Assembly: GCA_030390025.1 (NCBI GenBank)
Contig: JASTWF010000069.1
Location: forward strand, 930,001 to 994,000
Source: Squalus acanthias
Lineage: Eukaryota
Length of the DNA: 64,000 nucleotides
Direction: 5' to 3'
The notes under the pieces are model-generated. The model ran no database searches. It was not told where the DNA came from and was given only the letters and a program-made list of their open reading frames with translations. Made by a program: the position numbers and the translations under genes. The first letter of the stretch is position 1. Each line of letters begins with the position of its first letter. Positions 16,301-64,000 of this stretch are shown here, piece after piece.

Positions 16301-19300
16301 TCTCCAGTCTCTCCATGTGACTGAAGTCCCTCATCCCTGGGACCATTCTGGTCAATCTCCCCTTAACCTTCTCTGCTCTAAGGAGAACAACCCCAGCTTC
16401 TCCAGTCTCTCCACATCACTGAAGTCCCTCATCCCTGGAACCATTCTGGTAAATCTCCCCTTAATCTTCTCTGCTCTAAGGAGAACAACACCAGCTTCTC
16501 CAGTCTCTCAATGTGACTGAAGTCCCTCATCCCTGGAACCATTCTGGTCAATCTGCTCTTAACCTTCTCTGCTCCAAGGAGAACAACCCCAGCTTCTCCA
16601 GTCTCTCCACATCACTGAAGTCCCTCATCCCTGGGACCATTCTGGTCAATCTCCCCTTAACCTTCTCTACACTAAGGAGAGCATGGGAGACTGGTCAAGA
16701 AGGTAAGAGCCCATGGGTTCCAGGGCAACTTGGCATATTGGATCCAAAATTGGCTTACTGGCAGGAGGCAGAGGGTGATGGTCGAAGGTTGTTTTTGTGA
16801 CTGGAAGCCTGTGTCCAGTGGTGTACCACAGGGATCGGTGCTGGGTCCTTTGCTGTTTGTAGTGTACATTAATGATTTAGATATGAATGTAGGAGGTATG
16901 ATCAGTAAGTTTGCAGATGACACGAAAATTGGTGGGGTGGTAAATAGCGAGGAGGGAAGTCTCAGGCTGCAGGACGATATAGACGGGTTGGTCAAATGGG
17001 CAGAGCAGTGGCAAATGGAATTTAACCCTGAAAAGTGTGAGGTGATGCATTTTTGGGAGGACTAACAAGGCAAGGGAATACACAATGAATGGTAGGACCC
17101 TAGGAAGCACAGAGGATCAGAGGGACCTTGGCGTGCATGTACATAGATCCCTGAAGGCAGCAGGACAGGTAGAAAAGGTGGTTAAAAAGGCATTTGGGAT
17201 ACATGCCTTCATTAGCCGAGGCATAGAATATAAGAGCAGGGAGGTTATGATGGAGCTGTACAAAACGCTAGTTAGGCCACAGCTGGAATACTGTGTGCAG
17301 TTCTGGTCGCCACACTATAGGAAGGATGTGATTGCATTGGAGAGGGTGCAGAGGAGATTCACCAGGATGTTACCTGGGCTGGAGCGCTTCAGCTATGAAG
17401 AGAGACTGGACAGGCTGGGGTTGTTTTCCTTAGAGCAGAGAAGGCTGAGGGGGGACCTGATTGAGGTGTACAAAATTATGAGGGGCTTAGATAGGTAGAT
17501 AGAAAGGAACTTTTCCCCTTAGTAGAGGGGTCAGTAACCAGGGGGCATAGTTTCAAGGTAAGGGGCAGGAGGTTTAGAGGGGATTTGAGGAACAACTTTT
17601 TCACCCAGAGGGTGGTTGAATCTGGAACTCACTGCCTGAAAGGGTGGTAGAGGCAGGAACCCTCACAACATTCAAGAAGCATTTAGATGAGCACTTGAAA
17701 CACCATAGCATACAAGGCTACGGACCAAGTGCTGGAAAATGGGATTACAATAGACAGGGCTTGATTGCCGGCGCGGACACGGTGGGCCGAAGGGCCTCTT
17801 TCTGTGCTGTATAACTCTATGACTCTATGAGAACAACAGTTCTGCCTGATGCAACAACCAGCTGTCTTGTATCAGACAACAACAACCAGCTTGTATTTAG
17901 AGAGATGTGGAAGTACCTGTAGACTCACGTTCCACAGTGATGGTTATGGTCCTCTCCACTGCTCCATGTCCATTCTCCGCCACACACTGATAGTCTCCAG
18001 CGACCCTGGGTGTAACGTGAGGAATCTCCAACCACAGCTCGTTGTTGGAACTTGTTCTGTTCATTGTGACACCATGATGTCGCCAGGTCAGGTTAGAAGC
18101 CGGGAAGCTCACGACAGAGCAGAGTATCGCTGTAGAATTCCCTTCTTTGATATTGATCAATGAATTTTTAATCGTATCACGAGAAATAATGGAGAGATTC
18201 CGTGGGGCGTCTAAAGACAAATTAAGATCAGTTAACGTACATCGGCTGTGAAGCACTTTGAGAGACGCTGAGAATGTCAAAGGTGTGATATCAAAGCAAG
18301 TTCCTTCATCACAAAGCAGGTAATCCAAGCAGACACTTTAGTGCAGTACTGAGGGAGCGCCGCACTGTCGGAGGGTCAGTACTGAGGGAGCGCTGTCGGA
18401 GGGGCAGTACAGAGGGAGCGCCGCAGTGTCGGAGGGGCAGTACTGAGGGAGCGCCGCACTGTCGGAGGGGCGGTACTGAGGGAGCGCTGCACTGTCGGAA
18501 GGTCAGTACTGGGGGAGAGCCGCACTGTTGAAGGGACAGTACTGAGGGAGTGCCGCACTGTCGGAGGGGCAGTACTGAGGGAGTGCTGCACTATCGGCGG
18601 GGTAGTACTGAGGGAGCGCCGCACTGTTGGAGGGACAGTACTGAAGGGAGTGCTGCACTATCGGAGGGACAGTACTGAGGGAGTGCCGCACTGTCGGAGG
18701 GACAGTACTGAGGGAGCGCCGCACTGTTGGAAGTGCTGTCTTTCACATGAGACATTAAACCGAGGGAACGTCTGCCCTCTCAGGTGGATGTAAAAGATCC
18801 CATGACACTATTCAATGAAGAGTCCTATCTGTAAAATACAGATGATCTTGACATCAGAACCATTGCTGCTTGTGGGATCTTGCTGTGCGCAAAGTAGACT
18901 ATCACGGGTAATGTAGAATTAAGGATGTCCGTACTTACATTGCACAGTGAGTGCGAGGGTCTGCTCCGATGAAACAGATGGATATCTGACTCTGCAGGTG
19001 AGAGTTTGTCCGTGGTGTTTGAGTGATGGAATCAGGGACAGAACAGAAGTATATGTCAGAGTGACGCCATGCTGAGTTACACTGTTTGAGACTGACCCGG
19101 GTACGTCAGTGGGATTGACCCAGGTTAAGACAGGTGCTGTTCCAGTGCACGTGGTGTTGAAGGTGCAGCTTACGTTCACACGCTTTCCTGCAATCATTTC
19201 AGCAGGGAATATCCTGGGTTTATCTGTGAAATCTAACACACAGAGAATGGATCCTTTTAGATAAATATAACGTGAGGCATCAGTTCAAATAGAAATCACA

Positions 19301-22300
19301 GTCCCGCAAGAGAAAGTACTTTGACCCGGATAATACCAGAACTGAGAGGTTACAACGATCAGGAAAGATTGAACAGGCTGGGGCTCTTTTCTCTAGAAAA
19401 GAGAAGGCTGAGGGGTGACCTGATAGAGGTCTTTAAAATTATGAAGGGGTTCGATAGGGTAGACGGAGAGAAGGTATTTCCACTTGTGGGGGAGACCAGA
19501 ACTAGGGGCCATCAATATAAGATAGTCAGTGATAAATCCAATAGGGAATTCAGGAGAAACTTCTTTTCCCAGAGAGTGGTGAGAATGTGGAACTCGCTAC
19601 CACAGGGAGTGGTTGAGGCGAAGAGCAGAGATGCATTTAAGGGGAAGCTGAATAAACACATGAGGGAGAAAGGAATAGAAGGATATGTTGATGGGGTGAG
19701 ATGAAGAGGAGTGGGAGGAGACTGGTGTGGAGCATAAACACCGGGATGGACCAGTTGTGGTGAATGGCCTCTTTCTGTGCGGCAGACTTGATGTAACTTT
19801 GTGTGAATCTGCTAAGAAGAAATTGTTTCCTATTTCCAGGATTGGCGGAGTGTCTGTCACTGAGCTTAATACACTTTCTCTCCGAGACCCTTGAATTGAC
19901 TATACTGGGTGGGGGTGAAGGACCTGGTCACAGCCCCAGGAACACTGGCTCTCCACTCACTCAGAGATCTCTGCCAATGTTAAATTAAATCCTCTCCACG
20001 GCAGGACAGAACCAATTTGCAATTATCCCTCAACCAAAACATAAAAGAAAGACTTGCATTCCCACAGCTCATTTCATGACCTCAGGACGACCCAAAGTGC
20101 TTGACAGCCAATTAAATACTTCTAAAGTGTTAAACCAGATGATCTGGTCATTATCACATTGCTGTTTGTGGGAGCTTGCTGTGCGCAAACTGGCTGCCAC
20201 GTTTCCTACATTACAACAGTGACTACACTTCAAAAAAAGAACTTAATTGGCTGTGAAGCGCTTTGGAACCTCCTGAGGTGGTGAAAGGTGCTGGAGAAAT
20301 GTGAATCTGTCTTTTGTCTGTATGTAAGACTTTTAAACACGATTAGAGAGATATATGGGAGTCGATAACCTGATAACAATGATGGACACAGTCAAGACAT
20401 TCAATCATTGATAATAAAGTGAGTATTAGAGGTTGCTTTAGGACTGAACTGGAAGGTATCGCCAGGTTATTGATAATCAGACACTGTGTTATAATAAGCT
20501 GTGTTTTGTGTTAATGTGTAACCGCCACAGTTTCTGTTATTTCCCACTGACTGTTGAGCGTGAATTGTGGAGTAATTATAACCCAGCACTTACCAGAAAC
20601 ATGAAGCTGTGTTACAGGGTGGTAGTTAAACCGAACACTGTTGTCAAAATCTATTCTGAAATAATAAGTTCCTGCGTCTCGCTGTGTGATGTTGTTTATA
20701 ATCAGGGAACAGTCACCATCTCTCAGGTCTCCAGACAGCCGGGTCCGATGGTGAAACTGTGGCGACTCACGATTGTGATCCTTGGAGTGAAAGGCTATAG
20801 GCGATGATCTCCATTTCTCATAATTATACCAGATTCCAACTCGCGATTGGTTTGCCAGATGCGATGGATAAGTGTAATGACATGGAATCTGTGCACACAA
20901 ACCTTCCTGTGCTGTCACCACTCGTGGAGTCTTGCCTTTCCACACCTCTGACAATACAGCTGGGGAGAGAAATATCAATATTTAGCACTGGATGGCTTGT
21001 CGCTCCACTGGACTCGATATCCACCCCCTCCGTCACTGGCGCACAGTGTCTGCAGTGTGGACCATCTACAGGACACACAAGGAACTCACCAAGGTTACAT
21101 TGACAGCACCGCCCTCCCCTGCGACCTCTACCACCCAGAAGGACAAGAGCTACTGAGACAACACAATCCAAGAATGAATATCAAACACTGCGCACCGTGT
21201 TCTGTGATTGGGGAGCATTATAGTGAACCCACATGTCGGACAGACTCATAGTCACCTTGCCCGTGGACATCGCACCCGCCTGTCCTCATGCCTTTTCCTC
21301 AGCATACAATGTTTCTGTATGTGAAGACAATTCTTGACCCAACAGATGGCTCCATCAACCCAACGGATGGAAGGGAATCCTCGGCACGGGAGTGGACAAG
21401 TTCATTCTATATTGGCTCACAGACCTCAGGACCCTGTTCAGTGAAGTAGGTCTTCCACCCAACACAATGCCTAAATGACGCACCCATTGAGGAATATTCT
21501 GTGCTGACTTACAAGGCAGGAACAGTGGATTAGGATCCATCAGAACTCATGCCACTATCTCCATCCTGAATCACTAGAGTCATAGAGTCACACGGCACAG
21601 AAGGAGGCCATTCGGCCCATCGAGTCCGTGCCGGCTCTCTGTAGAGCAATCCAGTCAGTCCCATTCCCCCGCTCTATCCCCGTAGCCCTGCAAGTTTATT
21701 TCCCTCAAGTGCCTATCCAGTCTCCCCTTGAAAACATTGAAGGCTGGATTTTGTCAGTGTGGGGCGGTGTCAGGTGGAAATCGTGTCGGGACCCCGACTC
21801 CTAAGTGAAGTGCTGAAATAGTGGGATTTTCCCCTAATTGTGCAATTGATTTCCTGGGTGTGGGAACCCCTGGCCCAATGAGTCTTTTCAGACAGAAAGT
21901 CGCCTTCGATGACATCATCAATGCTGCTGGATTTAAGACCTGCAAGCAGCCTTGCTTCTTCTGGAGACTGGAAACGCTTTGGAAATTGTAGGAAGGAATA
22001 ATTTACCGACCATGTGCACCAGCAAGCAAAAGTGTGCACCTCGGTTTGATGAGCCCTCCCTCCAAGCTCTGGTGCATGGAGCCAGATGTAATAAGGAGGT
22101 GCTGTTCCCTTCCTCGGGGAGAAAAAAGCCACCCCAGCAGACAAAAGCTGTGTGGCTGCAAGTGGCCCAGGAGGTCAACTCCATTTCGCTGAGCCGCAGA
22201 ACCTGGCTGCAGTGCAGGAAGAGGTTTCATGACCTTCTCCACACAGGAAAAGTGAATATGACATTCCCATCACACTCAATCTGATCCCCATCGCCTCTCC

Positions 22301-25300
22301 TCACCAGCACTCTGCTTTGCCAACCTCTTCCTCCACATCCCACTTGACACTTACATTCCTGCACCCTTACCCATTCTCTCTCTCTCTCGAAGGTCACATT
22401 CACTTAACTATTCAACTATGCAGCCCTCACACTCCCTATCACTGTGATGCCATGACAACAACAACTTTTATCACACAGGGAGGGTCCTTTGTATCCTTCT
22501 AAGCATCTATGCTCTGGATTCTCTACACTCACTCCTTCATTCTCACTCAAACTCCACTTGTGTCCCTCATTGCAGGAAAAGAGAGCCCACAATAAGAGGG
22601 AAAGAGCCATGACAGGAGGAGGGCCACCCTCAGTAGCCCAGCTCACTGCCTGGGAGGAGGCGGCCCTGGAAATCGCCAGGATCGAGGAGGATTCCCAAGT
22701 GGGGGACGGACAGATGGGCGCATCACAGCAAGCTGGTGACAGAATAGTTTAGCATCTCTCTCATTGACATTGCATGGGTCACTGATAATGAATCTGATGC
22801 TCTAACAGATTGACTTATGATCATCTGCACTATTCAATGTTCATGTAACCTTGACCTCACATCTCTAACTCTTTCCTTTACTCCCCCATAGGACCATTGA
22901 AAGCCCCTGTCCCCACTGTCCAGGAGGAAGAGCCTGAGCTTCCAGACTCCTCAGAGGAAGCTGCAACCTCTGAGGGCGCAGCCTCAGCAGAATTCAGCGC
23001 ACCCAGCACCAGCGCAGACACTCACACCTCGGTGGGACCTTCGCGAGATAGAGTAGTGTTGGCACCTGGTTTATCACAGCTCACAAGTGAGCTTCAGCAG
23101 ATGGTGGAGACAGGGACAGCAGTGGAGAGGCCTCGTCGGAGGGCGCAGGACTCTGCCAGCTTGGCTCAGCTGCATGTCGACCCTGTGCCTCCGGGTCCAT
23201 CCAGAAGGAGAGCGGTGCTGGAACTCCAGGAACAGGTGCAGGAGTCTCTGGCAGGTTTTGTCTCCAGGGTTGCTGCGAGTGTCGAGCAAATGGAGAAGTC
23301 CATCGCGAACATGAGCAGAGCCTTTGTGGAGGCATTGGCGCATGAACGCATCACCACGGAAAGGATGGCAACCTCTGTGGAAAGGATGGCTACGGTAGAG
23401 GAGAGGATGGCTAAGGCCATGGAGGAGCTAAGTCGCCAGAGTGTAGAAAACATGTTCATTGTTCAGAATAGACTGGCATCTCTTGAGGCGCGATGGTCAG
23501 CTACTGAGCATAGAAACCAGACCTTCATGGAAGTCCTCTGGAGTAGGACTTGCAGTGCAGAAACGGGTCCTCATGGCCCCCCTGAAGTGCAGCAAGGTGC
23601 TGTCAAGCCACTTGCTAGCTCTGAAGTGGGGCTGACCCATGAGAGGGATATTGGTGGCAGACAACAAGGAAGTGGGGGCTCCTCTCCAAGCGCTCAAACG
23701 ACCATGCCACTGCAAAGCCCTCGGTCAGAGCCCCACCAGAGTCCTCATCCCAACTGAGATGGGCATCTCAGCCCCTGCACAGCCGCAGGAGCAGCAGACT
23801 GTTGCCGAGCCCTCACAGGTTCGCAACCCCAGAGGACGGCCGCCAAAGGTGTCGAGACAGGAGCAGCAAGAAAGTGAGCAAGGGGCGTCCACATCTGCTG
23901 TAGCCACAGGGGAAGCACCACGTAGGAGCACGCGTAAGAGGAAGATAATGCACAAGTAGTCACATGGGTAGTCACTTGGGTGTTATGTTGTGTTTATTTT
24001 TGAAATGCCACCAGTTGCTTGATGTGATAAAAAATTCTGATGGCAAACTGTTGAAGTTGTGGCCTGTGTCATTTTGCAAATGGAACTTCTACATTGAGGG
24101 CTTAGAGCGACTTGCAATCGTCAGTATGGTGGTCAGAGTTATAGGAATCCGTAGGTTCTTGTCCATTGTCGATGCTCTGGTAAGAACGTGCGAGGCAAAG
24201 GTGTTTGATTGTACAGGCTAAGCAAATGTGACCAACATGAGTGTGTCCCTTGCATCCCGGGCAGCAATATGGTCGTGCTCTGGTGACTTCTGGCCTGTGC
24301 ATCTTCAGGTGGGTGAGCAGCAGCTTGGCGCTCCTGTTGATGCTCCTGCTGTTGGTGCTGCTGTTGTTCATGGTTCTGCTGCTGCCGCGGCTGGTCTTCA
24401 TCCGAATCTGATGTCCAGGAGGAAAGGAAATATATGGTTCCCATGCTTCTGGTATATGCCTCAGTTGAGGAAGCGCTTAGTCAAGGTGGGGAGAGGGGTT
24501 TCCCAGGAGGTCACACTGGAGATGGGTGTCAGGCTCCAAACTTCCACAACACTGAGTAGGCCTGCTAAAAGTTCCCCCAGACCTGAAACAACAAAGTTCT
24601 ACCACCTGCAAATGATCATCGGTGAAAACTCCTTCGTAATGGTGGAGCTGCAGCTGTTGGTAAGCAGTCCACTTGTGAGGCCGCCAGCATTACCTGGCGT
24701 GTTCCAGAGGAGGCGTGAGGGATGGGGGGAATGACTAAAAATCGGAAAGGCCTCTCAAAATGGGATTATAGAGGCTATTAAGTGGTTGTTAAGGGCCTTA
24801 AGGGCCTATCCCGCCTCTTGGAGGCGGATGGAAAGGGGGTCAGAAAACACGCATTTGGGAAAAATGCTCGGAGGTGGGATGGAGGCGGGATTGGGCCTGC
24901 CCGCCAGTTTTTCCTCACATCCCCCCTGTATCTCTTGCCCAAAATCTGTGTCCCCTAGTCCTTGTACCATCAACTAGTGGGAACAGCCTTTCCCCGTCTA
25001 GCCTATCCAAACCCGTCATAATCTTGTACAACTCTATCAAATCACCCCTCAACCTCCTTTGCTCTAATGGAAACAAATCCAGCTTCTCCAACCTGTCCTT
25101 GCAGCTAAGATCCCCCATCCCCGGAACCATTCTGGTAAATCTCCTCTGCACCCTCTCAAGGGCCTTCACATCCTTCCTAAAGTGTGGTGACCAGAACTGG
25201 ACGCAATACTCCAGTTGTGGCCTAACCAGCGCTTTCTAAAGGTTCAGCATAACTTCTCAACTTTTGTACTCAATACCTCTATTTATGAAGCCCAAGATCC

Positions 25301-27083
25301 CATATGCTTTGCTAACCACTTTCTCAATATGTCCCGCCACCTTCAGGGACCTATGCACATTAACTCCCAGGTCCCTCTTTCACTGCACACTCTTTAAAAC
25401 TGTGCCATTAAGTGTATATTGCCTCTCCCTGTTCCTTCTGCCAAAATGCATCACCTCACACTTCTCTGTATTAAATTCCATCTGCCACTTGTCTGCCCAT
25501 TCTGCTAGCCTTTCTATGTCCTGTTGCAGTCGATTGGTATCATCCTCACTGTTTGCCACACCCCCAAGTTTGGTGTTGTCGGCAAATTTAGAAATTCTAC
25601 TCTGTATTCCAATATCCAGGACATTTATATATATCAAAAAAAGCAGTGGCCCCAGCACTGACCCTTGGGGAACACCACTGTCTACCATCCTCCAGTCTGA
25701 AAAACAGCCATTTACCACAACTCGCTGTTTTCTGTCCTTAAGCCAATTCCTTATCCAAGCTGCCACTGACCCACCTATTCCATGAGCCTCAATTTTGTTA
25801 ACCAGCCTTCTATGTGGTACTTTGTCAAACGCCTTCCCAAAATCCATGTAGACAACATCCATTTCATTCCCTTCATCAATCCTCCCTGTTACTTCAACAA
25901 AAAAATCAATTAGATTAGTCAAACACGATCTGCCTTTTACAAATCTGTGTTGGCTCTCCTTAATTAGCTTAAACCTCACCAAGTGTCCGATAATTTTTTC
26001 CTTGATTATTGTTTCTAAAATTTTACCCAACACTGATGTTAAACTGAATGGACTGTAGTTACTAGGATTGTCCTTACACCCTTTCTTGAACAATGGTTTC
26101 ACATTTGCCACTTTCCAATCTTCAGGCACCTCCCCCGCATCTAGGGAAGATTGGAAAATTATGGCAAGCCCTTCCGCTCTCTCCTCCCCCAATTCCCTTA
26201 GGAAGCCTAAACCTCTTGTTTGCTCTTCAGCCTCCCGATTGTCTAAGCTGGTGAATTTTGGATCCTCATTGTCTAAGGAATCACTTTGGATCCTCATTGT
26301 CTAAGGAATCACTTTGGATTCATGTCTAAGGAATCACTTTGGATCCTCATTGTCTAAGGACTATCTTTGGATCCTCATTGTCTAAGGAATCACTTTGGAT
26401 TCTCATTGTCTATGAAATATAACTGCACAGCAGATCAGAGGCAAACAGAGAAACTATATATATGACACCTTTATACACTTCCTGTCTTGTTTGCTTGTTA
26501 TCTTAACCACATCTTGCACCCTTACCATGGTATGAGGACTGAACTGCCTGTCTATTCTAAGCGCTGCTGTGTTGTTGTCATGGTGACCTGTAACTAAAAT
26601 TTGGATCTCTGCGCTCCTTCAATTCTGGCCTCTTGTCCATCCCCGAGTTTTAGGGAGGGAATTCCAGAGCTTAGGGTCGAGACGGCTGAAGGCACGGCCG
26701 CCATTGGTGGAGCGATGGAAATCGGGGAGGCACAAGAGGCCAGAATGGGTGGAACGCAGAGATCCCGGAGGCTTGCAGGGCTGGAGGAGGTTACAGAGAT
26801 AGTGAGGCAGGGGGCGAGGCCATGGAGCGATTTGAAGACGAGGATGAGGATTTTAAATTTGGGGCGTTGCCGGACCGGGAGCCAATGTAGATCAGCGAGC
26901 GCAGGGTTGATCTGTGAACGGGACTTGGTGCGAGTTAGGACACTGGGTCACTGCTGAATTTGGTCCCCAATCATAGCTCAATAAGAATGATCTTTCACAA
27001 AGACTATTAACCATAAATATGTCCGAGCTGACGATGATATTACCTTGGAGAAGTGACAGGAGGAAGTAAGATTTCCTGATCAT
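13146..27083 (-). CDS. Siglec-family receptor copy A (CD33-related/MAG/CD22-like), 5 coding exons, 391 aa, V-C2-C2-TM, predicted activating
   Basis: exons 27083-27044, 20959-20594, 19232-18939, 18210-17929, 13339-13146; all GT-AG, all phase 1; total 1176 nt, open frame. Confidence 0.85.
13395..15670 (-). mobile_element. CR1 LINE with endonuclease and RT regions, frameshifted
   Basis: [20 protein letters not shown] (endonuclease), [21 protein letters not shown] (RT). Confidence 0.92.
15686..16040 (+). mobile_element. fragment of a second CR1-type LINE family
   Basis: [20 protein letters not shown] motif. Confidence 0.7.
16262..16680 (-). repeat. 98-bp tandem repeat (about 4.2 copies) made from a CR1 ORF2 segment
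   Basis: ttaacc/ttaatc at 16265, 16363, 16461, 16559, 16657; unit is antisense to the [17 protein letters not shown]-coding region. Confidence 0.85.
16681..17830 (+). mobile_element. 5'-truncated CR1 LINE with 3' microsatellite tail
   Basis: [18 protein letters not shown]; ends ctctatgactctatga. Confidence 0.92.
17929..18210 (-). CDS. Siglec A exon 4: Ig C2-set domain 3
   Basis: (Y)[29 protein letters not shown]...[12 protein letters not shown]; acceptor ttgtctttag, donor gtgagt; 282 nt. Confidence 0.9.
18330..18895 (+). mobile_element. Deu-domain (SacSINE1-like) SINE with internal 33-bp tandem expansion
   Basis: (gggagcgccgcactgtcggaggggcagtactga)n followed by gtcttt..atgagacattaaaccgagg..ctctcaggtggatgtaaaagatcccatg. 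Confidence 0.75.
18939..19232 (-). CDS. Siglec A exon 3: Ig C2-set domain 2
   Basis: [39 protein letters not shown]; acceptor tgttag, donor gtaagt; 294 nt. Confidence 0.92.
19320..19800 (+). mobile_element. CR1 3' fragment in intron 2 (mirrored at ~62990-63465)
   Basis: [34 protein letters not shown]. Confidence 0.85.
20045..20312. mobile_element. two oppositely oriented SINE 3' fragments (mirrored at ~62478-62745)
   Basis: tggctgtgaagcgctttgg..cctgagg..gaaag tail present in both orientations. Confidence 0.65.
20594..20959 (-). CDS. Siglec A exon 2: sialic-acid-binding V-set domain
   Basis: [40 protein letters not shown]: Siglec Cys pattern and F-strand Arg (20655-20657); 366 nt, AG/GT. 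Confidence 0.93.
21741..24906 (+). mobile_element. PIF/Harbinger DNA transposon derivative: Myb/SANT gene kept, transposase largely deleted, right end lost
   Basis: starts aggctggatttt; absent from the right arm; encodes a Myb/SANT-like protein; about 65 bp of flanking CR1 is missing at the right junction. Confidence 0.75.
22012..23757 (+). CDS. Myb/SANT-like (trihelix) DNA-binding protein of Harbinger type; exons 22012-22251, 22576-22735, 22892-23757
   Basis: APRFDE..L..LV..LFP...W..VA..VN.....[12 protein letters not shown] | [18 protein letters not shown]; GT-AG introns in compatible phases, 1266 nt; coiled-coil-like C-terminal part; probable frameshift before the ancestral end at 23959. 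Confidence 0.75.
26260..26412. repeat. 28-bp tandem repeat (ggatcctcattgtctaaggaatcacttt), mirrored at ~58606-58712
   Basis: direct repeats, about 5 copies on the left and 4 on the right. Confidence 0.85.
26600..26945 (-). mobile_element. L2 LINE 3' fragment (mirrored at ~57657-58000)
   Basis: encodes ..LADLHWLPV....[14 protein letters not shown], typical L2 C-terminus. Confidence 0.75.
27044..27083 (-). CDS. Siglec A exon 1: signal peptide [13 protein letters not shown](A)
   Basis: ATG, hydrophobic core, CAAG|gtaat phase-1 donor joining to (G)CT GTA TTG TCA; identical in both arms. Confidence 0.8.
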
Positions 27084-27904
27084 TGTCCACTCCCAGATAT
27101 TTCATCAACTTCTCACTCTCAAGGTCTGAAAGAGAAAGGAGTTAATGAGACCTCACCTCTTGCCCGACAGCTCTCGAGAGATCAAAACTGCTTTGAGACT
27201 ATGTCTTCACTAATTTTACTCACTGTGGGATGATAGGTGCTCTGCAGTGAGTTACAAGGCTTTAAGAAAGAAAAACAAAGGAATACTTGCATTTCTCCAG
27301 ACACTTTCACCACCTTAGGACATCCCAAATAGCCTCACAGCCAATGAAGTACTTCTTACAGTGTAGTCACTGTTGTAATGTAGAAAACGCGGCAGCCAAA
27401 TTGCACACAGCAAGATTCCACAGACGGCGATGGGATAAACGGTCAGACTGTCTGTACTTGATGTTACCGAAACTCACTGCTTGGGTCGAATGGCCTCTTC
27501 CTGTGCTGCACCCTCTGTGTATTCAATTAGAAAGGGTTGATGTGTCGCTGTGAGTTAAATCAGGAAGCGGGCAACAAGTGAGAAAACATCACTTTGTCCG
27601 GCCCTATAAGCAAACTGTTAACCCTTTGTGTCCTGACACTCTGAAGATATTTCTGCTGGAAGCTGGGCAGCCGTTGCCATGGAGTTTCCACCGGGGCTCA
27701 GTGGGTTTAACTCTCTTTCTCTCCCTCTCTCTCTCCCTCTCTCTTTCTCTCGCCTCTGAGTCAGAAGGTTGTGGGCTCAGAGACTTTTGAGTGATGCTGG
27801 TTGAGGGATAAATATTGGCCCCAGGACACCGGAGAGAACTCCTCCTGAGCTAAGGAAATACGTCATTTCTAGATTGCTAGATTATTGATGGTTAATGATG
27901 TCAA

Positions 27905-36068: not shown

Positions 36069-36127
36069 GTTCCAGGTAAGATGGGCCTTGGACGCCAGAG
36101 GCACCCACCCTAAGTTCTACCCACAGA

Positions 36128-51800: not shown

Positions 51801-54800
51801 GGACAGGAGGAGGCACATTCAGCCCCTCGAGCCTGTTACACAGGAACAGGAGGAGGCACATTCAGCCCCTCGAACATGTTACACGGGACAGGAGGAGGCA
51901 CATTCAGCCCGTCGAGCCTGTTACACAGGAACAGGAGGAGGCACATTCAGCCCCTCGAGCCTGTTACACAGGAAAAGGAGGAGGCCGATTCAGCCCCTCG
52001 AGCCTGTTACACAGGAACAGGAGGAGGCCATTCAGCCCCTCGAGCCTGTTACACAGGAACAGGAGGAGGCCCATTCAGCCCCTCGAGCCTGTTACACAGG
52101 AACAGGAGGAGGCACATTCAGCCCCTCGAGTCTGTTACACAGGAAAAGGAGAGGCCGATTCAGCCCCTCGAGCTGTTACACAGGAACAGGAGGAGGCCCA
52201 TTCAGCCCCTCGAGCCTGTTACACAGGAACAGGAGGAGGCACATTCAGCCCCTCGAGCCTGTTACACAGGAACAGGAGGAGGCCATTCAGCCCCTCGAGC
52301 CTGTTACACAGGAACAGGAGGAGGCCCATTCAGCCCCTCGAGCCTGTTACACAGGAACAGGAGGAGGCCCATTCAGCCCCTCGAGCCTGTTACACGGGAC
52401 AGGAGGAGGGACATTCAGCCCGTCGAGCCTGTTACACAGGAACAGGAGGAGGCCCATTCAGCCCCCTCGAGCCTGTTACACAGGAACAGGAGGAGGCCAT
52501 TCAGCCACTCGAGCCTGTTACACAGGAACAGGAGGAGGCCCATTCAGCCCCTCGAGCCTGTTACACAGGAACAGGAGGAGGCACATTCAGCCCCTCGAGC
52601 CTGTTACACAGGAACAGGAGGAGGCCCATTCAGCCCCTCGAGCCTGTTACACAGGAACAGGAGGAGGCCCATTCAGCCCCTCGAGCCTGTTACACAGGAA
52701 CAGGAGGAGGACCATTCAGCCCCTCGAGCCTGTTACACAGGAACAGGAGGAGGCCCATTCAGCCCCTCGAGCCTGTTACACAGGAACAGGAGGAGGCCCA
52801 TTCAGCCCCTCGAGCCTGTTACACAGGAACAGGAGGAGGCCCATTCAGCCCCTCGAGCCTGTTACACAGGAACAGGAGGAGGCACATTCAGCCCCTCGAG
52901 CCTGTTACACAGGAACAGGAGGAGGCACATTCAGCCCCTCGAGCCTGTTACACAGGAACAGGAGGAGGCCCATTCAGCCCCTCGAGCCTGTTACACAGGA
53001 ACAGGAGGAGGCCCATTCAGCCCCTCGAGCCTGTTACACAGGAACAGGAGGAGGCCCATTCAGCCCCTCGAGCCTGTTACACAGGAACAGGAGGAGGCCC
53101 ATTCAGCCCCTCGAGCCTGTTACACAGGAACAGGAGGAGGCCATTCAGCCCCTCGAGCCTGTTACACAGGAACAGGAGGAGGCCCATTCAGCCCCTCGAG
53201 CCTGTTACACAGGAACAGGAGGAGGCCCATTCAGCCCCTCGAGCCTGTTACACAGGAACAGGAGGAGGCCCATTCAGCCCTCGAGCCTGTTACACAGGAA
53301 CAGGAGGAGGCCCATTCAGCCCCTCGAGCCTGTTACACAGGAACAGGAGGAGTCCCATTCAGCCCCTCGAGCCTGTTACACAGGAACAGGAGGAGGCCCA
53401 TTCAGCCCCTCGAGCCTGTTACACAGGAACAGGAGGAGGTCCATTCAGCCCCTCGAGCCTGTTACACAGGAACAGGAGGAGGCCCATTCAGCCCCCTCGA
53501 GCCTGTTACACAGGAACAGGAGGAGGCCCATTCAGCCCCTCGAGACTGTTACACAGTAACAGGAGGAGTCACATTCAGCCGCTCGAGTCAGTTACCATAG
53601 GAAAATGAGGAGGCCGATACAGCCCCTCGATCCTGTTACACAGGGACAGGATGAGGCCATTCAGCCCCTCGAGCCTGTTACACAGGAACAGGAGGGGGCA
53701 CATTCAGCCCCTCGAACATGTTACACGGGACAGGAGGAGGTACATTCAGCCCGTCGAGTCTGTTACACAGGAACAGGTGGAGGCCCATTCAGCCAATCGA
53801 GCCTGTTACACAGGAACAGGAGGAGTACCATTCCGCCCCTCGAGCCTGTTACACAGGAACAGGAGGAGGCCATTCAGCCCCACGAGCCTGTTACACAGGA
53901 ACAAGGGGAGGCCCATTCAGCCCCTGGAGCCAGTTACACAAGAACAGGAGGCGGCCCATTCAGCCCCTCGAGCCTGTTACACAGGAACAGGAGGAGGCCG
54001 ATTCAGCCCCTCGAGCCTGTTACACAGGAGCAGGAGAAGGACCATTCAGCACCCTCGAGCCTGTAGCACAGGAACAGGAGAAGGCCCATTAAGCACCCTC
54101 GAGCCTGTTGCACAGGAGCAGGAGAAGGCCCATTCAGCATCCTCGAGCCTGTTACACAGAAACAAGGGGAGGCCCATTGAGCCCCTTGAGCCTGTTACAC
54201 AGGAACAGGAGGCGTCCCATTCAGCCCCTCGAGCCTGTTACACAGGAACAGGAGGAGGCCCATTCAGCCCCTCGAGCCTGTTGCACAGGAACAGGAGGAG
54301 GCCCATTCAGCCCCCTCGAGCCAGTTACACTGTAACAGGAGGAGGACATTCAGCCCCTCGAGCCTGTTACACAGGAACAGGAGGAGGCCCATTCAACCTC
54401 TCGAGCCTGTTACACAGGAACAGGAGGAGGCCCATTCAGCCCCTCGAGCCTGTTACACAGGAACAGGAGGAGGCCCATTCAGCCCCTCGTGCCTGTTACA
54501 CAGGAACAGGAGGAGGCCCATTTAGCCCCTCGAGCCTGCTCCACCATTCAATTCGATCATGGCTGATCTGTACGTCAACTCCAATTGCCCGCCTTTGCTC
54601 CACATCTCTTGACACCCTTAACCAACAAAAATCTAGCAATCTCAATTTCTAACGACTTCCTGCATCCACAGCCTTTTTGGGGAGAGAGTTCCAGATTTCC
54701 ACCACCCTTTGTGTGAAGACGTGCTTCCTGACATCAGCCCTGAGCAGCCAGATCTAATTTTAAGATTCTGCTCCCTTGTTCCGGAATCCGTTGTTAGAGA

Positions 54801-54974
54801 TTACGATTGAGAAATAGGAAGGAAAGAAATTTAACACAACATAATGACAGATCCTATATTCCATTTGAGATTATTTCTCCTTTAAAAAATAAACTAAAAT
54901 TGAAAGACTTCCCTTTATCAACTCAAGGCCAGACTGGGTTCTCTGTTCCTAACACAATCCTCAATCTATCCTGC

Positions 54975-56800
54975 GGCAGTTGTAGCTCAGTGTGTTCAGC
55001 ACTCTCTCTTTCTCACTCTCACATCTGAGTCACAAGGTTGTGGTTTCAAGGCCTCACTCCAGAGATTTGAACACATAATCCAGGCCGAGAATGATGGTGC
55101 CAGTACTGAGGGAGCGCCGCACTGTCGGAGGGGCAGTACTGAGGGAGCGCCGCAATGTCGGAGGGGCAGTACTGAGGGTGCACTGCACTGTCGGACGGGC
55201 AGTACTGAGGGTGCACTGCACTGTCGGAGGGGCAGTACTGAGGGAGCACCGCACTGTCGGAGGGGCAGTACTGAGGGTGCACTGCACTGTTGGAGGGTCA
55301 GTACTGAGGGAGTGCCGCACTGTCGGAGGGGCAGTACTGGGGGAGTGCTGCATTGTCGGAGGGGCAGTACTGAGGGAGCGCCGCACTGTCGGAGGGGCAG
55401 TACTGTGGGAGCGCCGCACTTTGGGAGGGGCAGTACTGAGGGAGCGCCGCACTGTCGGAGGGGCAGTACTGAGGGTGCACTGCACTGTCGGAGGGGCAGT
55501 ACTGAGGGAGCGCCACACTGTCGGAGGGGCAGTACTGAGGGTGCACTGCACTGTCGGAGGGTCAGTACTGAGGGAGTGCCGCACTGTCGGAGGGGCAGTA
55601 CTGGGGGAGTGCTGCACTGTCGGAGGGGCAGTACTGAGGGAGCGCAGCACTGTCGGAGGGGCAGTACTGGGGGAGCCCCTCACTGTCGGAAGGGCAGTAC
55701 TGAGGGAGCACTGCACTCTCGGAGGGTCAGTACTTGGGGAGCGCCGCAGTATCAGAGGGGCAGTACTGAGGGAGAGCTGCACTGTCGGAGGGGCAGTACT
55801 GAGGGAGCGCCGCACTGTCGGAGTGGCAATACTGAGGGAGCGCCGCACTGTCGGAGGGGCAGTACTGAGGGAGCGCCGCACTGTCACATGGTCAGTACTG
55901 AGGGAACGCCGCACTGTCGGAGGGGCAGCACTGAGGGAGCACCGCACTGTCGGAGGGGCAGTACTGAGGGAGCGCCGGACTGTCGGAGGGGCAGTACTGA
56001 GGGAGCGCCGCACTGTCAGAGGGGCAGTACTGAGGGAGCGCCGCACTGTCGGAGGGTCAGTACTGTGGGAGCGCCGCACTTTGGGAGGGGCAGTACTGAG
56101 GGAGCGCCGCACTGTCAGAGGGGCAGTACTGGGGGAGCGCCGCACTGTCGGAAGGTCAGTACTGAGGGAGCGCCGCACTGTCAGAGGGGCAGTACTGGGG
56201 GAACGGCACACTGTCGGAGGGGCAGTACTGAGGGAGAGCTGCACTGTCGGAGGGGCAGTACTGAGGGTGCGCCGCACTGTCGGAGTGGCAATACTGAGGG
56301 AGCGCCGCACTGTCGGAGGGGCAGTACTGAGGGAGCGCCGCACTGTCACAGGGTCAGTACTGAGGGAGCGCCGCACTGTCGGAGGGGCAGTACTGAGGGA
56401 GCACCGCACTGTCGGAGGGGCAGTACTGAGGGAGCGCCGCACTGTCAGAGGGGCGGTACTGAGGGAGCGCCGGACTGTCGGAGGGGCAGTGCTGAGGGAG
56501 TGCCGGACTGTCGGAGGGGCGGTACTGAGGGAGCGCCGGACTGTCGGAGGGTCAGTACTGAGGGAGTGCCGGACTGTCGGAGGGGCGGTACTGAGGGAGC
56601 GCCGGACTGTCGGAGGGTCAGTACTGAGGGAGTGCCGCACTGTCGGAGGTGCCGTCTTTCAGATGAGATGTTAAACCGATGCCCTGTCTGCTCTCTCAGG
56701 TGGACGTAAAAGATCCCAGGGCCAATATTTTGAAGAAGAGCAGGAAGAGTTCTTCCCGGTGTCCTGGGGCCAATATTTATCCCTCAACCAGCATTACTCA
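54975..56800 (+). mobile_element. Deu-domain SINE with ~1.5 kb internal 33-bp expansion (55102-56648)
   Basis: tRNA-like head (gctcagtg..ctgagtca..ggttcaag), 33-mer array, then ggtgccgtctttcagatgagatgttaaaccga..caggtggacgtaaaagatccc. Confidence 0.8.
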
Positions 56801-58784
56801 AAAGTCTCTGAGCCCACAACCTTCTGACTCAGAGGAGAGGGAGAGGGAGAGAGAGAGAGAGAGAGAGGGAGATGAAGAGAAAGAGAAAGAGCTAAACCCA
56901 CTGAGCTCCGGTGGAAACACCATGGCAACGGCTGCCCAGCTTCGAGCAGAAATATCTTCAGAGTGTCAGGACACAAAGGGTTAACAGTTTGCTTATAAGG
57001 TCGGACAAAGTGATGTTATCTCACTTGTTGCCCGCTTCCTGATTTGACTCACTGCGACACATCAACATTTAAAGTTGAATACACAGAGGGTGCAGCACAG
57101 GAAGAGGCCATTCGACCCAAGCAGTGAGTGTCGGTAACATCAAGAACAGACTGTCTGACCGTTTATCCCATCGCCGTCTGTGGGATCTTGCTGTGTGCAA
57201 TTTGGCTGCCGCGTTTCCTACATTACAACAGTGACTACACTGTCAGAAGTACTTCATTGGCTGTGAAGCGCTTTGGGACGTCCTGAGGTGGTGAAAGGTG
57301 CTGGAGAAATGCAAGTATTCTTTGTTTTTCTTTCTTAAAGCCTTGTAACTCACTGCAGAGCACCTATCATCCCACAGTGAGTCAAATTAGTCCGTGAAGA
57401 CATTGTCTCAAAGCAGTTTTGATCTCTCGAGAGCTGTCGGGCAAGAGGTGAGGTCTCATTAACTCCTTTCTCTTTCAGACCTTGAGAGTGAGAAGTTGAT
57501 GAAATATCTGGGAGCGGACAATGATCAGGAAATCTTACTTCCTCCTGTCACTTCTCCAAGGTAATATCATCGTCAGCTCGGACATATTTATGGTTAATAG
57601 TCTTTGTGAAAGATCATTCTTATTGAGCTATGATTGGGGCCAAATTCAGCAGTGACCCAGTGTCCTAACTCGCACCAAGTCCCGTTCACTCCTCAACCCT
57701 GCGCTCGCTGATCTACATTGGCTCCCGGTCCGGCAACGCCCCAAATTTAAAATCCTCATCCTCGTCTTCAAATCGCTCCATGGCCTCGCCCCCTGCCTCA
57801 CTATCTCTGTAACCTCCTCCAGCCCTGCAAGCCTCCGGGATCTCTGCGTTCCACCCATTCTGGCCTCTTGTGCCTCCCCGATTTCCATCGCTCCACCAAT
57901 GGCGGCCGTGCCTTCAGCCGTCTAGACCCTAAGCTCTGGAATTCCCTCCCTAAAACTCGGGGATGGACAAGAGGTCAGAATTGGAGGAGCGCAGAGATCC
58001 AAATTTTAGTTACAATTCGCCATGACGACAACACAGCAGCGCTTAGAATAGACAGGCAGTTCAGTCCTCACAATTACTGCCCATTCTCAGGATGATAGCA
58101 ACCATGGTAAGGGTGCACGATGTGGTTAAGATAACAAGCAAACAAGACAGGAAGTGTATAAAGGTGTCATATATACAGTTTCTCTGTTTGCCTCTGATCT
58201 GCTGTGCAGTTACATTGCATAGAATCATAGAATGATACAGCACAGAAGGAGGCCATTCTGCCCATCGTGCCTGTGCCGGCTCTTTGAAAGAGCTATCCAA
58301 TTAATCCCACTCCCCCGCTCTTCCCCCACAGCCCTGCTGAAATCATGAATATTTCAGACGAACACGGAACAAGAGGTATTTGCCACCGACGTTTAGTTTG
58401 AAGCCCAGTTCAGTTTTAACAAACACGCAGCGAGACCGCCTGTAAACGCCCCTGCACCTCCGACACATTCAGAGCTCAGGCAAGAGGAGATTCGCTCCTG
58501 TGCTTCAAAGAGTCTGCTGGAGTAGGAACAGTGCTGATCTTGGGGACAAGTCAGTCTACAATGCTGTATCGGAATCACCCTACAGCAATATTGTTGGACC
58601 TAAAATAATCCCTTAGAAAATGAGGATCCAAAGTGATTCCTTAGACAATGAGAATCCAAAGAGATTCCTCAGACAATGAAAATCCAAAGAAATTCCTTAG
58701 ACAATGAGGATCCGAAATTCGCCAAGTAGACTGAATCAGCTTAGACAATCAAGAGGGCTGAAGAGCAAACAAGAAGGTCAGGCT

Positions 58785-60309
58785 TGCTAAGGGAATTGGG
58801 GGAGGAGAGAGCGGAAGGGCTTGCCATAATTTTTCAATCTTCCCTAGATGCAGGGCAGGTGCCTGAGGATTGGAAAATGTCAAATGTGAAACCATTGTTA
58901 AAGACAGGGTGTACGGCCAATTCTACTAACTACAGGCCGGTCAGTATAACATCGTTGGTGGGTGTAGTTTTAGAAACAATAATCAAGGAAAAAATTATCG
59001 GTCACTTGGAGATGTTTAAGCTAATTAAGGAGAGCCAACACGGATTTGTAAAAGGCAGATCGTGTTTGACTAATGTAACTGAATTTTTTGCTGAAGTAAC
59101 AAGGAGGATTGATGAAGGGAATGCAATGGATGTTGTCTGCATGGATATTCGGAAGGCGTTTGACAAAGTACCACATAGAAGGCTGGTTAACAAAATTGAG
59201 GCTCATGGAATAGGTGGGTCAGTGGCAGCTTGGATAAGGAATTGGCTTAAGGACAGAAAACAGCGAGATGTGGTAAATGGCTGTTTTTCAGACTGGAGGA
59301 TGGTAGACAGTGGTGTTCCCCAAGGGTCAGTGCTGGGGCCACTGCTTTTTCTTATATCTATAAATGACCTGGATATTGGAATATAGAGTAGAATTTCTAA
59401 ATTTGCCGACGACACCAAACTTGGGGGTGTGGCAAACAGTGATGACATCAATCGACTGAAACATGATATAGAAAGGCTAGCAGAATGGGCAGACAAGTGG
59501 CAGATGGAATTTAATACAGAGAAGTGTGAGGTGATGCATTTTGGTCAGAAGGAACAGGGAGAGGCAATTTCCACTTAATGGCAGTTTTAAACCAAGTGCA
59601 GGGACAGAGGGACCTGGGAGTTAATGTGCATAGGTCCCTGAAGGTGGCGGGACATTTTGAGAGCGGGGTTAGCAAAGCATATGGGATCTTGGGCTTCAAA
59701 AATAGAGGTATTGAGTACAAAAGTAGAGAAGTTATGCTGAAGCTTTATAAAGCACTGGTTAGGCCACAACTGGAGTATTGCATCCAGTTCTGGTCACCAC
59801 ACTTTAGGAAGGATGTGAAGGCCCTTGAGAGGGTGCAGAGGAGATTTACCAGAATGGTTCCGGGGATGGGGGATCTTAGCTACAAGGACAGGTTGGAGAA
59901 GCTGGATTTGTTTTCATTAGAGCAATGGAGGTTGAGGGGAGATTTGATTGTGGTGTGCAAGATTATGACGGGTTTGGATAGGCTAGACGGGGAAAGGCTG
60001 TTCCCACTAATTGATGGCACAAGGACTAGGGGACACAGATTTAAGGTTTTGGGCAAGAGATACAGCGGATTGTGAGGAAAATCTTTTTTATGCAGCGAGT
60101 GGTGAGGACATGGAACTCGCTGCCGACGGAAGTGGTGGAAGCGGAGACACTCAATGTTTTCAAGGGGAGACTGGATAGGCACTTGAGGGAAATAACCTTG
60201 CAGGGCTACGGGGATAGAGCGGGAGAATGGGACTGACTGGATTGCTCTACAGAGAGCTGGCACGGACTCAGTGGGCCGAATGGCCGCCTTCTGTGCCGTA
60301 TGACTCTAT
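58785..60309 (+). mobile_element. CR1 LINE in intron 1 of copy B
   Basis: RT ORFs 58784-59386 and 59578-60075; tail ends gactctat. Confidence 0.9.
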
Positions 60310-61205
60310 GGGGGAGAAATTCAGTATCACCCCATTTGGGGCGCAATTATTGGCCGGGCGCAAAGATTAGCGCCTGGCGCTAATTATCGCCACCGACTGC
60401 AAACTTGACTTTTATCGCCCCTGGAGGTGATTGGAGTGCTAAATCAGGCAGTTCACACCTGTCTTAAGGCGCAAAGGCCGAGAGGCGAGGCACTACTTCA
60501 GAGTGCTGGCGAAGCTCATGTGATGTCAGTCAGCAATGGAACACACACACAAAGGCACGGGCCTGTTCTTAAAGGGGATGGTTGATCTTGCTTTCCAGCC
60601 ACATCCTGCTCATTGCAGCCTTGAATCTCGGCCTGGAGAGACCTGCACATCAAATCTGCTGGAAAGAACAATGGAGAGTACCAGGCAAAGAGCTCAGAGT
60701 GCAGCCCCCACAGTCTCTTCTAAATCGATACAAGGAAGTTCAAATCAAAATGAACCTGCAAAGTGCTGCTCAGTACCCAAAACTCCTTCACACAGCGTTG
60801 AATCTCTCCAGAAGTCTCTCTCCCTCTCTCTCAGAATGCGTGGTTCAAAAATGGCACCAACAATAAAAGGCAGGAAGCGGTCGCCTTTAAATAGCGCTCA
60901 CCCAGTCCCTTCCTGACTGCAAACGGCTCCCCTCAACCTGTCGTTGCTAGCGGCAGGCTGTAAGGCAGGGGGCGCCACTCAATATCCGCTCCGGGGCGCT
61001 ACCGGGGCGCTGCGCACTCGACTGACGTCACGATCTGCCGGCGCAGGAGAACTACGTGGCGGTAGTGTTTAGCGCCGCCGCAAAATTTCTAGTTAATTTC
61101 GCGAGCGGCGCAAACATCGCCGCGCCTGGGCGCTCGATGATTGGCGCCCCATTAGCGCCCTCTTAAGGCGCTAATGGGAGACGCAACCAACTGAATTTTT
61201 CCCCC
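60310..61205. mobile_element. non-autonomous Harbinger-type element (896 bp)
   Basis: 16-bp TIRs gggggagaaattcagt / actgaatttttccccc (1 mismatch); 3-bp target duplication tat; empty site present in the left arm (~21578). Confidence 0.85.
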
Positions 61206-64000
61206 TATGACCCTAGTGATTCAGGATGGAGATAGTGGCTTTAGTTCTGACGGATCCTAATCCACTGTTCCTGCCTTGTAAGTCAGCACACAATATACCT
61301 CAATGGGTGTGTCATTTAGGCATTGTGTTGGGTGGAAGACTTGCTTCACTGAACAGGGTCCTGAGGTCTGTGAGCCAATATAGAATGAGCTTGTCCACTC
61401 CCGTGCCGAGGATTCCCTTCCATCCGTTGGGTTGATGGAGCCATCTGTTGGGTCAAGAATTGTCTTCACATACAGAAACATTGTATGCTGAGGAAAAGGC
61501 ATGAGGACAGGCGGGTGCGATGTCCACGGGCAAGGTGACTATGAGTCTGTCCGACATGTGGGTTCACTATAATGCTCCCCAATCACAGAACACGGTGCGC
61601 AGTGTTTGATATTCATTCTTGGATTGTGTTGTCTCAGTAGCTCTTGTCCTTCTGGGTGGTAGAGGTCGCAGGGGAGGGCGGTGCTGTCAACGTAACCTTG
61701 GTGAGTTCCTTGTGTGTCCTGTAGATGGTCCACACTGCAGACACTGTGCGCCAGTGACGGAGGGGGTGGATATCGAGTCCAGTGGAGCGACAAGCCATCC
61801 AGTGCTAAATATTGATATTTCTCTCCCCAGCTGTATTGTCAGAGGAGTGGAAAGGCGAGACTCCACGAGAGGTGACAGCACAGGAAGGTTTGTGTGCACA
61901 GATTCCATGTCATTACACTTATCCATCGCGTCTGGCAAACCAACCGCGAGTTGGAATCTGGATTAATATGTGGAACGGAGATCATCGCCTATAGCCTTTC
62001 ACTCCAAGGATCACAATCGTGAGTCGTCACAGTTTCGCCATCGGACCCGGCTGTCTGGAGACCTGAGAGATGGTGACTGTTCCCTGATTATAAACAACAT
62101 CACACAGCGAGACGCAGGACCTTATTATTTCAGAATAGAATTTGACAACAGTGATCTGTTTAACTACTACCCTGAACACAGCTTCATGTTTCTGGTAAGT
62201 GCTGGGTTATAATTACTCCACAATTCACGCTCAACAGTCAGTGGGAAATAACATAAACTGTGGCGGTTACACATTAACACAAAACACAGCTTATTATAAC
62301 ACAGCGTCTGATTATCAATAACCTGGCGATACCTTCCAGTTCAGTCCTAAAGCAACCTCTAATACTCACTTTATTATCAATGATTGAATGTCTTGACTGT
62401 GTCCATCATTGTTATCAGGTTATCGACTCCTATCTATCTCTCTAATTGTGTTTAAAAGTCTTACATACAGACAAAAGACAGTCTCACATTTCTCCAGCAC
62501 CTTTCACCACCTCAGGAGGTCCCAAAGCGCTTCACAGACAATGAAGTTCTTTTTTTGAAGTGTGGTCACTGTTGTAATGTAGGAAACGTGGCAGCCAGTT
62601 TGCGCACAGCAAGCTCCCACAAACAGCAATGTGATAATGACCAGAACATCTGGTTTAACACTTCAAAAGTACTTCATTGGCTGTGAAGCGCTTTGGGACG
62701 TCCTGAGGTCATGAAATGCGCTGTAGGAATGCAAGTCTTTCTTTTATGTTTTGGTTGAGTGATCATTGCAAATTGTTTCTGTCCTGCCGTGGAGAAGATT
62801 TAATTTAACATTGGCAGAGATCTCTGAGCGAGTGGAGAGCCAGTGTTCCTGGGGCTGTGACCAGGTCCTCCACCCCGAACCAGTATTGTCAATTCAAGTA
62901 TCTCAGAGAGAAAGTGCATTAAGCTCAGTGACAGACACTCCGCAAACCCTGGAAATAGGAAACAATGTTTTCTTATACATTCACACAAAGTTACATAGAG
63001 ACTACCGCTCAGAAAGAGGCCATTCAGCACAACTGGTCCATCCCGGTGTTTATGCTCCACACCAGCCTCCTCCCACCCCTCTTCATCTCACCCCATCAAC
63101 ATATCCTTCTATTCCTTTCTCCCTCATGTGTTTATTCAGCTTCCCCTTAAATGCATCTCTGCTCTTCGCCTCAACCACTCCCTGTGGTAGCGAGTTCCCC
63201 ATTCTCACCACTCTCTGGGGAAAGAAGTTTCTCCTGAATTCCCTATTGGATTTATCAGTGACTATCTTATATTGATGGCCCCTAGTTCTGGTCTCCCCCA
63301 CAAGTGGAAACATCTTCTCTACGTCTACCCTATCGAAACCCTTCATAATTTTAAAGACCTCTATCAGGTCACCCCTCAGCCTTCTCTTTTCTAGAGAAAA
63401 GAGCCCCAGCCTGTTCAATCTTTCCTGATCGTTGTAACCTCTCAGTTCTGGTATTATCCGTGTAAAAGTACTTTCTCTTGCGGGACTGTGATTTCTATTT
63501 GAACTGATGCCTCACGTTATATTTATCTAAAAGGATCCATTCTCTGTGTGTTAGATTTCACAGATAAACCCAGGATATTCCCTGCTGAAATGATTGCAGG
63601 AAAGCGTGTGAACGTAAGCTGCACCTTCAACACCACGTGCACTGGAACAGCACCTGTCTTAACCTGGGTCAATCCCACTGACGTACCCGGGTCAGTCTCA
63701 AACAGTGTAACTCAGCATGGCGTCACTCTGACATATACTTCTGTTCTGTCCCTGATTCCATCACTCAAACACCACGGACAAACTCTCACCTGCAGAGTCA
63801 GATATCCATCTGTTTCATCGGAACAGACCCTCGCACTCACTGTGCAATGTAAGTACGGATATCCTTAAATTTAATTACCCGTGCTAGTCTACATTGCGCA
63901 CGGCAAGATCCCACAAAGGGCAACATGGTGAGGCCTAGATCAGAAAATTTTTATTGATAAATATTGACAAGAACACTGGGGAGAACACTTCTTTAAATCG

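Follow-up and report, generated by a model that had tools for sequence, protein, structure and literature searches.

Results

An inverted pair of Siglec genes

The window analysed here is a 64,000-nucleotide stretch of the Squalus acanthias genome (contig JASTWF010000069.1, positions 930,001 to 994,000), and all positions given are those of the window. It contains two head-to-head Siglec genes, as the original prediction had claimed: gene A on the minus strand and gene B on the plus strand, with Siglec signal, V and first C exons in both arms of an inverted repeat and start codons 30.4 kb apart. The self-comparison proposed as a check, run as a self-BLAST with tandem arrays masked, recovers the inverted pair as four collinear A~B blocks. 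The repeat spacer between the arms, predicted at ~29 kb, measures 28,893 bp, and 70% of it is tandem arrays. The arms, blocks and copy-specific insertions are as follows.

Arm A, 18870..27847, minus strand: covers the region upstream of gene A and the gene itself as far as 69 nt into intron 3, by masked self-BLAST
Arm B, 56741..63916, plus strand: by masked self-BLAST
Spacer, 27848..56740, no strand: 28,893 bp; 43-, 33- and 18-bp arrays plus a degenerate long terminal repeat (LTR) element
Block 1, 26409-27847~58223-56741, inverted: 93.1%
Block 2, 24906-26359~60084-58611, inverted: 91.4%
Block 3, 21581-21740~60310-60151, inverted: 95.6%
Block 4, 18870-21585~63916-61205, inverted: 96.5%
A-only insertion, 21741..24905, plus strand: 3.2 kb, with a Myb/SANT-like open reading frame at 21937-22284 (PF13873, E 9e-9)
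B-only element, 60310..61205, no strand: 895 bp, 16-bp terminal inverted repeats, resembling a miniature inverted-repeat transposable element
B-only insertion, 58224..58610, plus strand: ~390 bp, starting with the 3' end of a repeat
Intron 1 long interspersed element (LINE) fragment, 24906..26204, minus strand, in A and 58784-60084 in B: same junction in both, 6.0-6.2% different

The arms had been described as reverse complements. Their inverted collinear homology bears this out; they are not plain reverse complements, being interrupted by three copy-specific insertions. In a global alignment that excludes two insertion regions, the copies differ by 4.2% (229 substitutions in 5441 clean columns). 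The A-only insertion, which we take to be probably of PIF/Harbinger type, lies where 66 nt of the LINE are gone. The three copy-specific insertions and the 6% LINE divergence point to an old split between A and B. The inverted pair holds up, but it is gene-sized, and its age is greater than its most similar stretches would suggest.

Gene A

Gene A has an open frame of 391 aa spread over five exons, all bounded by canonical splice sites, in the order signal, V, C, C and transmembrane (TM).

Exon 1, 27044..27083, minus strand: signal peptide exon of 40 nt in phase 1; B has the identical exon
Exon 2, 20594..20959, minus strand: V-set domain, with 20655-20657 as the codon of the essential Arg115
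Exon 3, 18939..19232, minus strand: first C2-set domain
Exon 4, 17929..18210, minus strand: third immunoglobulin (Ig) domain; beyond the shared arm
Last exon, 13146..13339, minus strand: membrane helix with Arg339 (codon 13305-13307), 34-residue tail and stop; between two LINE pieces

Siglecs carry three cysteines each in the V and first C domains, forming intra- and inter-domain disulfides. In the shark family, Cys35/40/97 and Cys158/164/215 are invariant in 52 of 52 unique homologs, as is the essential arginine. The Pfam matches of gene A are V-set, Ig_CD22, C2-set_2 and Ig_3, and the best PDB matches of its domains are Siglecs without exception. Arg115 aligns with the essential arginine of Siglec-5 and MAG, the site of which is the Y-x-F-R motif of the V domain (PMC13358205). 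By its domain order, type I membrane architecture, essential arginine and cysteines, the predicted product of gene A qualifies as a Siglec.

An activating partner is defined by a basic residue in the membrane helix and a short tail without an immunoreceptor tyrosine-based inhibitory motif (ITIM) (PMC13358205). With Arg339 and a tail of 34 residues containing no tyrosines, the predicted gene A product looks like an activating-type receptor. The arginine-bearing transmembrane (Arg-TM) exon that the original prediction placed in copy A does put Arg339 within the helix. Local BLAST against the family proteins finds homologous exons, at 55-62% identity, in 9 of 146 proteins from four shark species, so the exon is no chance reading frame. 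As a query by itself, the TM exon returned none of 36 candidates in one search and no matches in another.

A stretch of ~1 kb that holds this exon is flanked by a 171-bp direct LINE repeat (12166-12336 and 13400-13570, 96%), placing the exon as if inside one LINE. One possibility is that this arrangement is a trace of LINE-mediated exon shuffling.

The V domain of A scores nearly equally against Siglec-5 (53.6 bits) and MAG (53.4), as does the first C domain against CD33 (31.1) and MAG (29.8); a three-domain shark homolog scores 151 against MAG and 136 against Siglec-8. With scores split in this way, the shark Siglec family may be either CD33-related or a separate offshoot near MAG. A tblastn of the 146 family proteins against the window found no Siglec exons beyond those of A and B.

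Gene B

Gene B shares the 5' exons of gene A.

Exon 1, 57521..57560, plus strand: signal peptide, identical to A
Exon 2, 61831..62194, plus strand: V-set; as assembled, it contains a stop at 61992-61994 and has lost 1 nt near 61962-61966 and another at 62174
Exon 3, 63555..63848, plus strand: C2-set; one synonymous difference from A

The V exon of B retains the essential arginine codon (62132). Contigs of four sequencing runs were compared with 61200-64000: X1 and X2, likely from the same species as the window, and X15 and X16, which are only guessed to be RNA. The listed contigs are short and none of them reads on past 64000, where any 3' exons of B would lie; two records of X1 and four of X2 run over an end of the compared stretch. 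The extra base behind 61966 accounts for a depth of 21.2 of 120.5 in X1, none of 127.7 in X2 and all 14.8 in X15, the remaining depth including contigs that end there; X16 has no cover at this position. At 62174, the extra base accounts for all depth in X2 (61.5/61.5) and X16 (12.4/12.4), and X1 and X15 have no cover. The listed contigs with extra bases differ from B at 4-8 further sites. They therefore represent in-frame relatives, either close paralogs or alleles, rather than B itself.

Two neutral deletions in B since the split are improbable (p 0.007-0.04, a rough estimate). Two consensus errors are also unlikely, because LTR copies in the window align with 0 gaps in 934 columns. That B is a young pseudogene and that it is an intact gene with two consensus errors are about equally probable. 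Skipping of the V exon, phase 1 to phase 1, would preserve the frame in B. A broken B would fit with the observation that null alleles are common in paired-receptor systems (PMC6288428, PMC5701461).

Uneven divergence between the copies

Between the V exons of A and B there are 15 nonsynonymous and 0 synonymous changes (p=0.013; two ambiguous codons and one gapped codon excluded). The exon diverges by 4.7%, as compared to 1.8% in its flanking introns (p=0.006). The C-C' and F-G stretches hold eight of the 15 nonsynonymous changes (p=0.008), with strands assigned by homology and the regions picked with the data known. At the 15 differing sites, B has the residue commoner in the family at 9 and A at 6.

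Identity along the shared arm is patchy: runs of 358, 301 and 231 bp without any difference are interspersed with stretches that are 6-11% divergent. The longest non-coding identical run, 301 bp, compares with a shuffled mean of 129 (p=2e-4; clean blocks of the two sequences only). The C exon has 1 difference in 294 nt, and divergence is just 1.8-2.4% in the unique introns close to V and C. This pattern suggests that the patchwork comes from gene conversion, either directly between A and B or via other copies.

Other copies appear to be numerous. In X1, depth per contig reaches 1620-1830 where A and B share sequence, as compared to 97 for the B tail and 16-24 for rare variants; contig depth is no copy number, but hints at tens of near-identical copies. 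Exchange may thus involve third genes. In X15 and X16, coverage extends over the V and C exons and not over the unique intron bins, and contigs stop matching at exon edges, which fits spliced family transcripts.

The drop in identity in intron 3

The original prediction placed an abrupt drop at ~63868. The drop instead occurs in two steps. After the C exon, 6 substitutions and 1 gap occur in 68 nt, the first at 63860; the sharp drop follows at 63917, from which point 39 of 84 columns differ.

B sequence past the drop, 63917..64000, plus strand: same short interspersed element (SINE) family as in A at 18869-18700, far more diverged

This B tail aligns to the A tail above chance (shuffle p=0.007). 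Unrelated DNA after the drop was considered and rejected, both copies continuing in one SINE family. Record 8 of X1 is an exact match to 63885-63968, with 32 and 52 letters on either side of the drop, and a contig of X2 carries a variant of the B tail differing at 63933-63934.

A basking-shark model (P0022) retains intron 3 and matches the read-through of A, in the same frame, up to the SINE motif. Reading through the same motif as A, it indicates that the intron 3 SINE is ancestral to the family. Most simply, the drop would mark where a homogenised 5' tract stops within two introns that diverged long ago; it could also stem from recombination between two copies of the SINE. Of the proposal that the drop is a conversion or duplication boundary, a conversion-like boundary is thus retained; homology, however, continues past it in an older SINE. 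B, having an anciently different intron 3, probably has a different 3' module.

The family in sharks and rays

A search with the V exon gave 112 matches, all shark or ray proteins with Siglec-type domains, at a best identity of 75%. Assigned by pattern, their tails comprise 57 that are ITIM-like or resemble the switch motif ITSM, 19 with other tyrosines, 7 Arg-TM, 7 that are tyrosine-free and 22 with no clear helix. Six family proteins carry an Arg-TM segment immediately after the first C domain.

A tree of the V and first C domains was built from 32 of the 105 rows that have this block, namely A and those TM-bearing proteins of five species that are not identical. Its few Arg-TM rows, six in number, require 5 changes (Arg-TM proteins P0002 and P0025 lack the full block and lie outside the tree). 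Monophyly of the Arg-TM rows is rejected under LG+G4 at a cost of 83.65 log units (p 0.016 in the approximately unbiased test, made after inspection of a quick tree). Species labels, in turn, cluster on the tree, with 8 changes as compared to a shuffled mean of 19.5. Concerted evolution or exon shuffling is expected to produce just this combination, an old shared TM exon joined to ectodomains that group by species. At the level of the family the case is stronger than for A and B as a pair; being a protein-level test in other sharks, it bears on conversion at this locus indirectly.

Several of the shark models P0001-P0011 have many tandem V-set domains per chain, as compared to one (or two) in mammalian Siglecs; these may be real or fused. 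Among P0126, P0122, P0131, P0132 and P0134, the arginine-bearing helix of a stingray member is a different one, and skate members combine tails of 6-7 residues with an uncharged helix core. Rays may have non-inhibitory Siglec forms of their own.

Other repeats of the window

The degenerate LTR element of the spacer (34248-38587) has 96%-identical LTRs and sits in a 43-bp array. A second LTR with leader (30603-31537), 3.65 kb upstream of it, is part of a tandem duplication. The 33-bp arrays at 18343-18731, 40676-41144, 49753-50851 and 55101-56649 begin right where SINE copies end and look as if derived from the SINE tail. Further tandem arrays are found at 10078-10857 (50 bp) and 38588-39511 (18 bp). 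A GC-rich repeat occupies 1-4587 and 6128-7434, with a period of ~2.18 kb, 91% between copies and an internal ~435-bp duplication; the copy at 6128-7434 is inverted. Rfam and ARAGORN scans of the window, this repeat included, gave no match.

Discussion

Proposed exchange of a 5' module

The structure of the locus and the family data suggest that a 5' module has been exchanged among paralogs of a large elasmobranch Siglec family, on 3' modules that are old and distinct. We put the probability of this reading at roughly 0.6. The module would consist of promoter, signal, V and first C exon, and would have been swapped repeatedly between paralogs. Conversion between A and B could be helped by the inverted layout, or could proceed through other copies. 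The V exon would then diverge after conversion, under positive selection on the binding face. If gene A functions as its sequence predicts, it would bind sialoglycans via Arg115 and signal via Arg339 through an adaptor with an ITAM (immunoreceptor tyrosine-based activation motif), FcR-gamma or DAP12. Inhibitory family members exploited by pathogens might donate ectodomain sequence by conversion, after which the binding faces would drift apart. By family frequency, we estimate that the odds slightly favour an ITIM-type 3' module in B.

Several points weigh against exchange as the explanation, or against A and B as a dedicated activating/inhibitory pair. As to exchange, repeat-like parts differ by 5.0% as compared to 3.6% in other non-coding parts, the LINE of A is no closer to that of B (6.0%) than to unrelated copies in the window (5.1-6.3%), and the C exon is conserved across sharks regardless. 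With two sequences, conversion and rate variation are inseparable. The window covers only 84 nt beyond the drop. Across the family, white shark shows a strong nearest-neighbour signal and catsharks a weak one (V of P0066, 68% vs 68%; P0054, 84% vs 82%; the V comparison of P0002, with a top identity of 60%, looks out of register and was disregarded). The homologs are automatic gene models that may be chimeric, as P0121 is. As to the pair, the V exon of B is frameshifted twice as assembled, a point that the original prediction overlooked; the V exons of A and B are diverging rather than matched; and the tens of copies hinted at by contig depth would make A and B no exclusive pair. As to gene A itself, the splicing of exon 4 to the Arg-TM exon is a prediction from sequence, and the TM exon lacks four pre-helix residues of its homologs and has a tail ~20 residues longer that runs past their stop.

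Alternative explanations

One reading that goes further, though of rather low probability, is that B is an intact ITIM-bearing Siglec whose deletions are consensus errors, and A its activating counterpart, the two kept matched by conversion in the head-to-head layout. A and B are closely linked and have highly similar ectodomain exons, as do paired receptors. If this were true, sharks would run a full paired-Siglec system, with a conserved Arg-TM exon of their own that has been swapped among ectodomains since a time before the main shark lineages split. Sharks would in that case either have the oldest paired Siglecs or have arrived at the primate design independently.

A rival explanation, of low probability, is a single inverted duplication of the 5' part of A, ended by SINE-SINE recombination, with B a truncated or chimeric pseudogene produced by birth and death. 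Uneven identity would here reflect faster change of repeats and selection on exons, not conversion. Consistent with this proposal, both arm ends lie in copies of one SINE family, repeat-like parts diverge more, and B is frameshifted by deletions that the gap-free LTR alignment suggests may be real. The 301-bp identical run, however, is non-coding. An ancestral intron 3 SINE, shared by both copies, needs no new junction, and the B tail is found in two other DNA runs. The absence of synonymous changes in V is also a poor fit to a long-dead gene.

It is doubtful that B is of the same activating type as A, with an Arg-TM exon of its own, such that the two are same-sign paralogs with different ligand loops. 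The six proteins with an Arg-TM segment directly after the first C domain would allow for this. So would the diversifying V exons, since opposing pairs are expected to share a ligand. Arg-TM forms are, however, a minority (9/146). This proposal is compatible with conversion and departs from the exchange of a 5' module only in the tail assigned to B.

Finally, an assembly artefact (a false duplication, a misassembly or a low-quality contig end) is very improbable. In its favour, the drop comes within 84 nt of the end of the window, satellite is abundant in the spacer and B has two frameshifts. Against it, an independent X1 contig crosses the drop without a difference, a variant of the tail with two bases changed occurs in a second run, and copy-specific insertions with 229 substitutions cannot arise from one duplicated haplotype. 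This largely refutes an artefact at the drop; the adjacency of A and B across the 29-kb spacer is taken as assembled.

Implications

Paired Siglecs have been described from primates. The shark ITIM and Arg-TM forms suggest the paired-receptor design known there. An expanded family with both forms, ectodomains that follow species and selection on the binding face would extend the arms race of inhibitory and activating Siglecs to cartilaginous fish. The mechanism as such is already known; single versus repeated origin of paired Siglecs becomes testable with public shark genomes.

Comparison with known systems

Non-mammalian Siglecs have reportedly been surveyed before (Cao et al. 2009; Bornhofft et al. 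2018), and part of this ground may be covered there. Full-text searches of the literature, comprising open papers, listings and the starts of abstracts, found no study of shark Siglecs. In the available part of the whale shark genome paper, Siglecs are named once. Fish genomes are reported to be without CD33-related Siglecs in the accessible portion of PMC7226832, which concerns teleosts only and leaves sharks unmentioned there.

The closest relatives of the pair are the annotated shark Siglec models, with V domains up to 75% and first C domains up to 92% identical, and the TM motif in nine. The pair described here is not among them, and these models carry automatic names only, with the Arg-TM/ITIM split unannotated.

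The original prediction drew its analogy from human SIGLEC11/16 and SIGLEC5/14, and their reported head-to-head layout (SIGLEC11/16) and conversion (both pairs) are borne out in PMC5701461 and PMC4042635. SIGLEC11 and SIGLEC16 resemble the shark pair in being head-to-head, in having a highly similar 5' region with V and C2 exons, and in their fragmented converted regions; SIGLEC16P, moreover, is a null allele by a small deletion in exon 2 (PMC5701461). In contrast to the 30.4 kb between the shark start codons, the human genes lie ~9 kb apart, and the broken human copy is the activating one (PMC5701461), whereas in the shark it is B that is broken as assembled and A, the copy of activating type, that reads as intact. 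The likeness does not imply orthology.

Siglec-14 resembles the predicted product of A in carrying a TM arginine and in its three Ig domains. In the SIGLEC5/SIGLEC14 pair, as proposed for the shark, conversion is limited to the first two domains and the activating partner uses an adaptor (PMC4042635). The ligand domain of Siglec-14 is near-identical to that of Siglec-5 (PMC4042635), whereas the shark V exon exceeds its flanking introns in divergence.

The CEACAM pairs of Xenopus belong to another family, confine conversion to the N exon and have activating members with an ITAM-like motif of their own rather than a charged helix (PMC5112662). They are nonetheless the parallel outside mammals: arranged in opposite orientation, they combine near-zero synonymous change with nonsynonymous changes on the CC'C''FG face after conversion (PMC5112662), the pattern seen here between the V exons of A and B.

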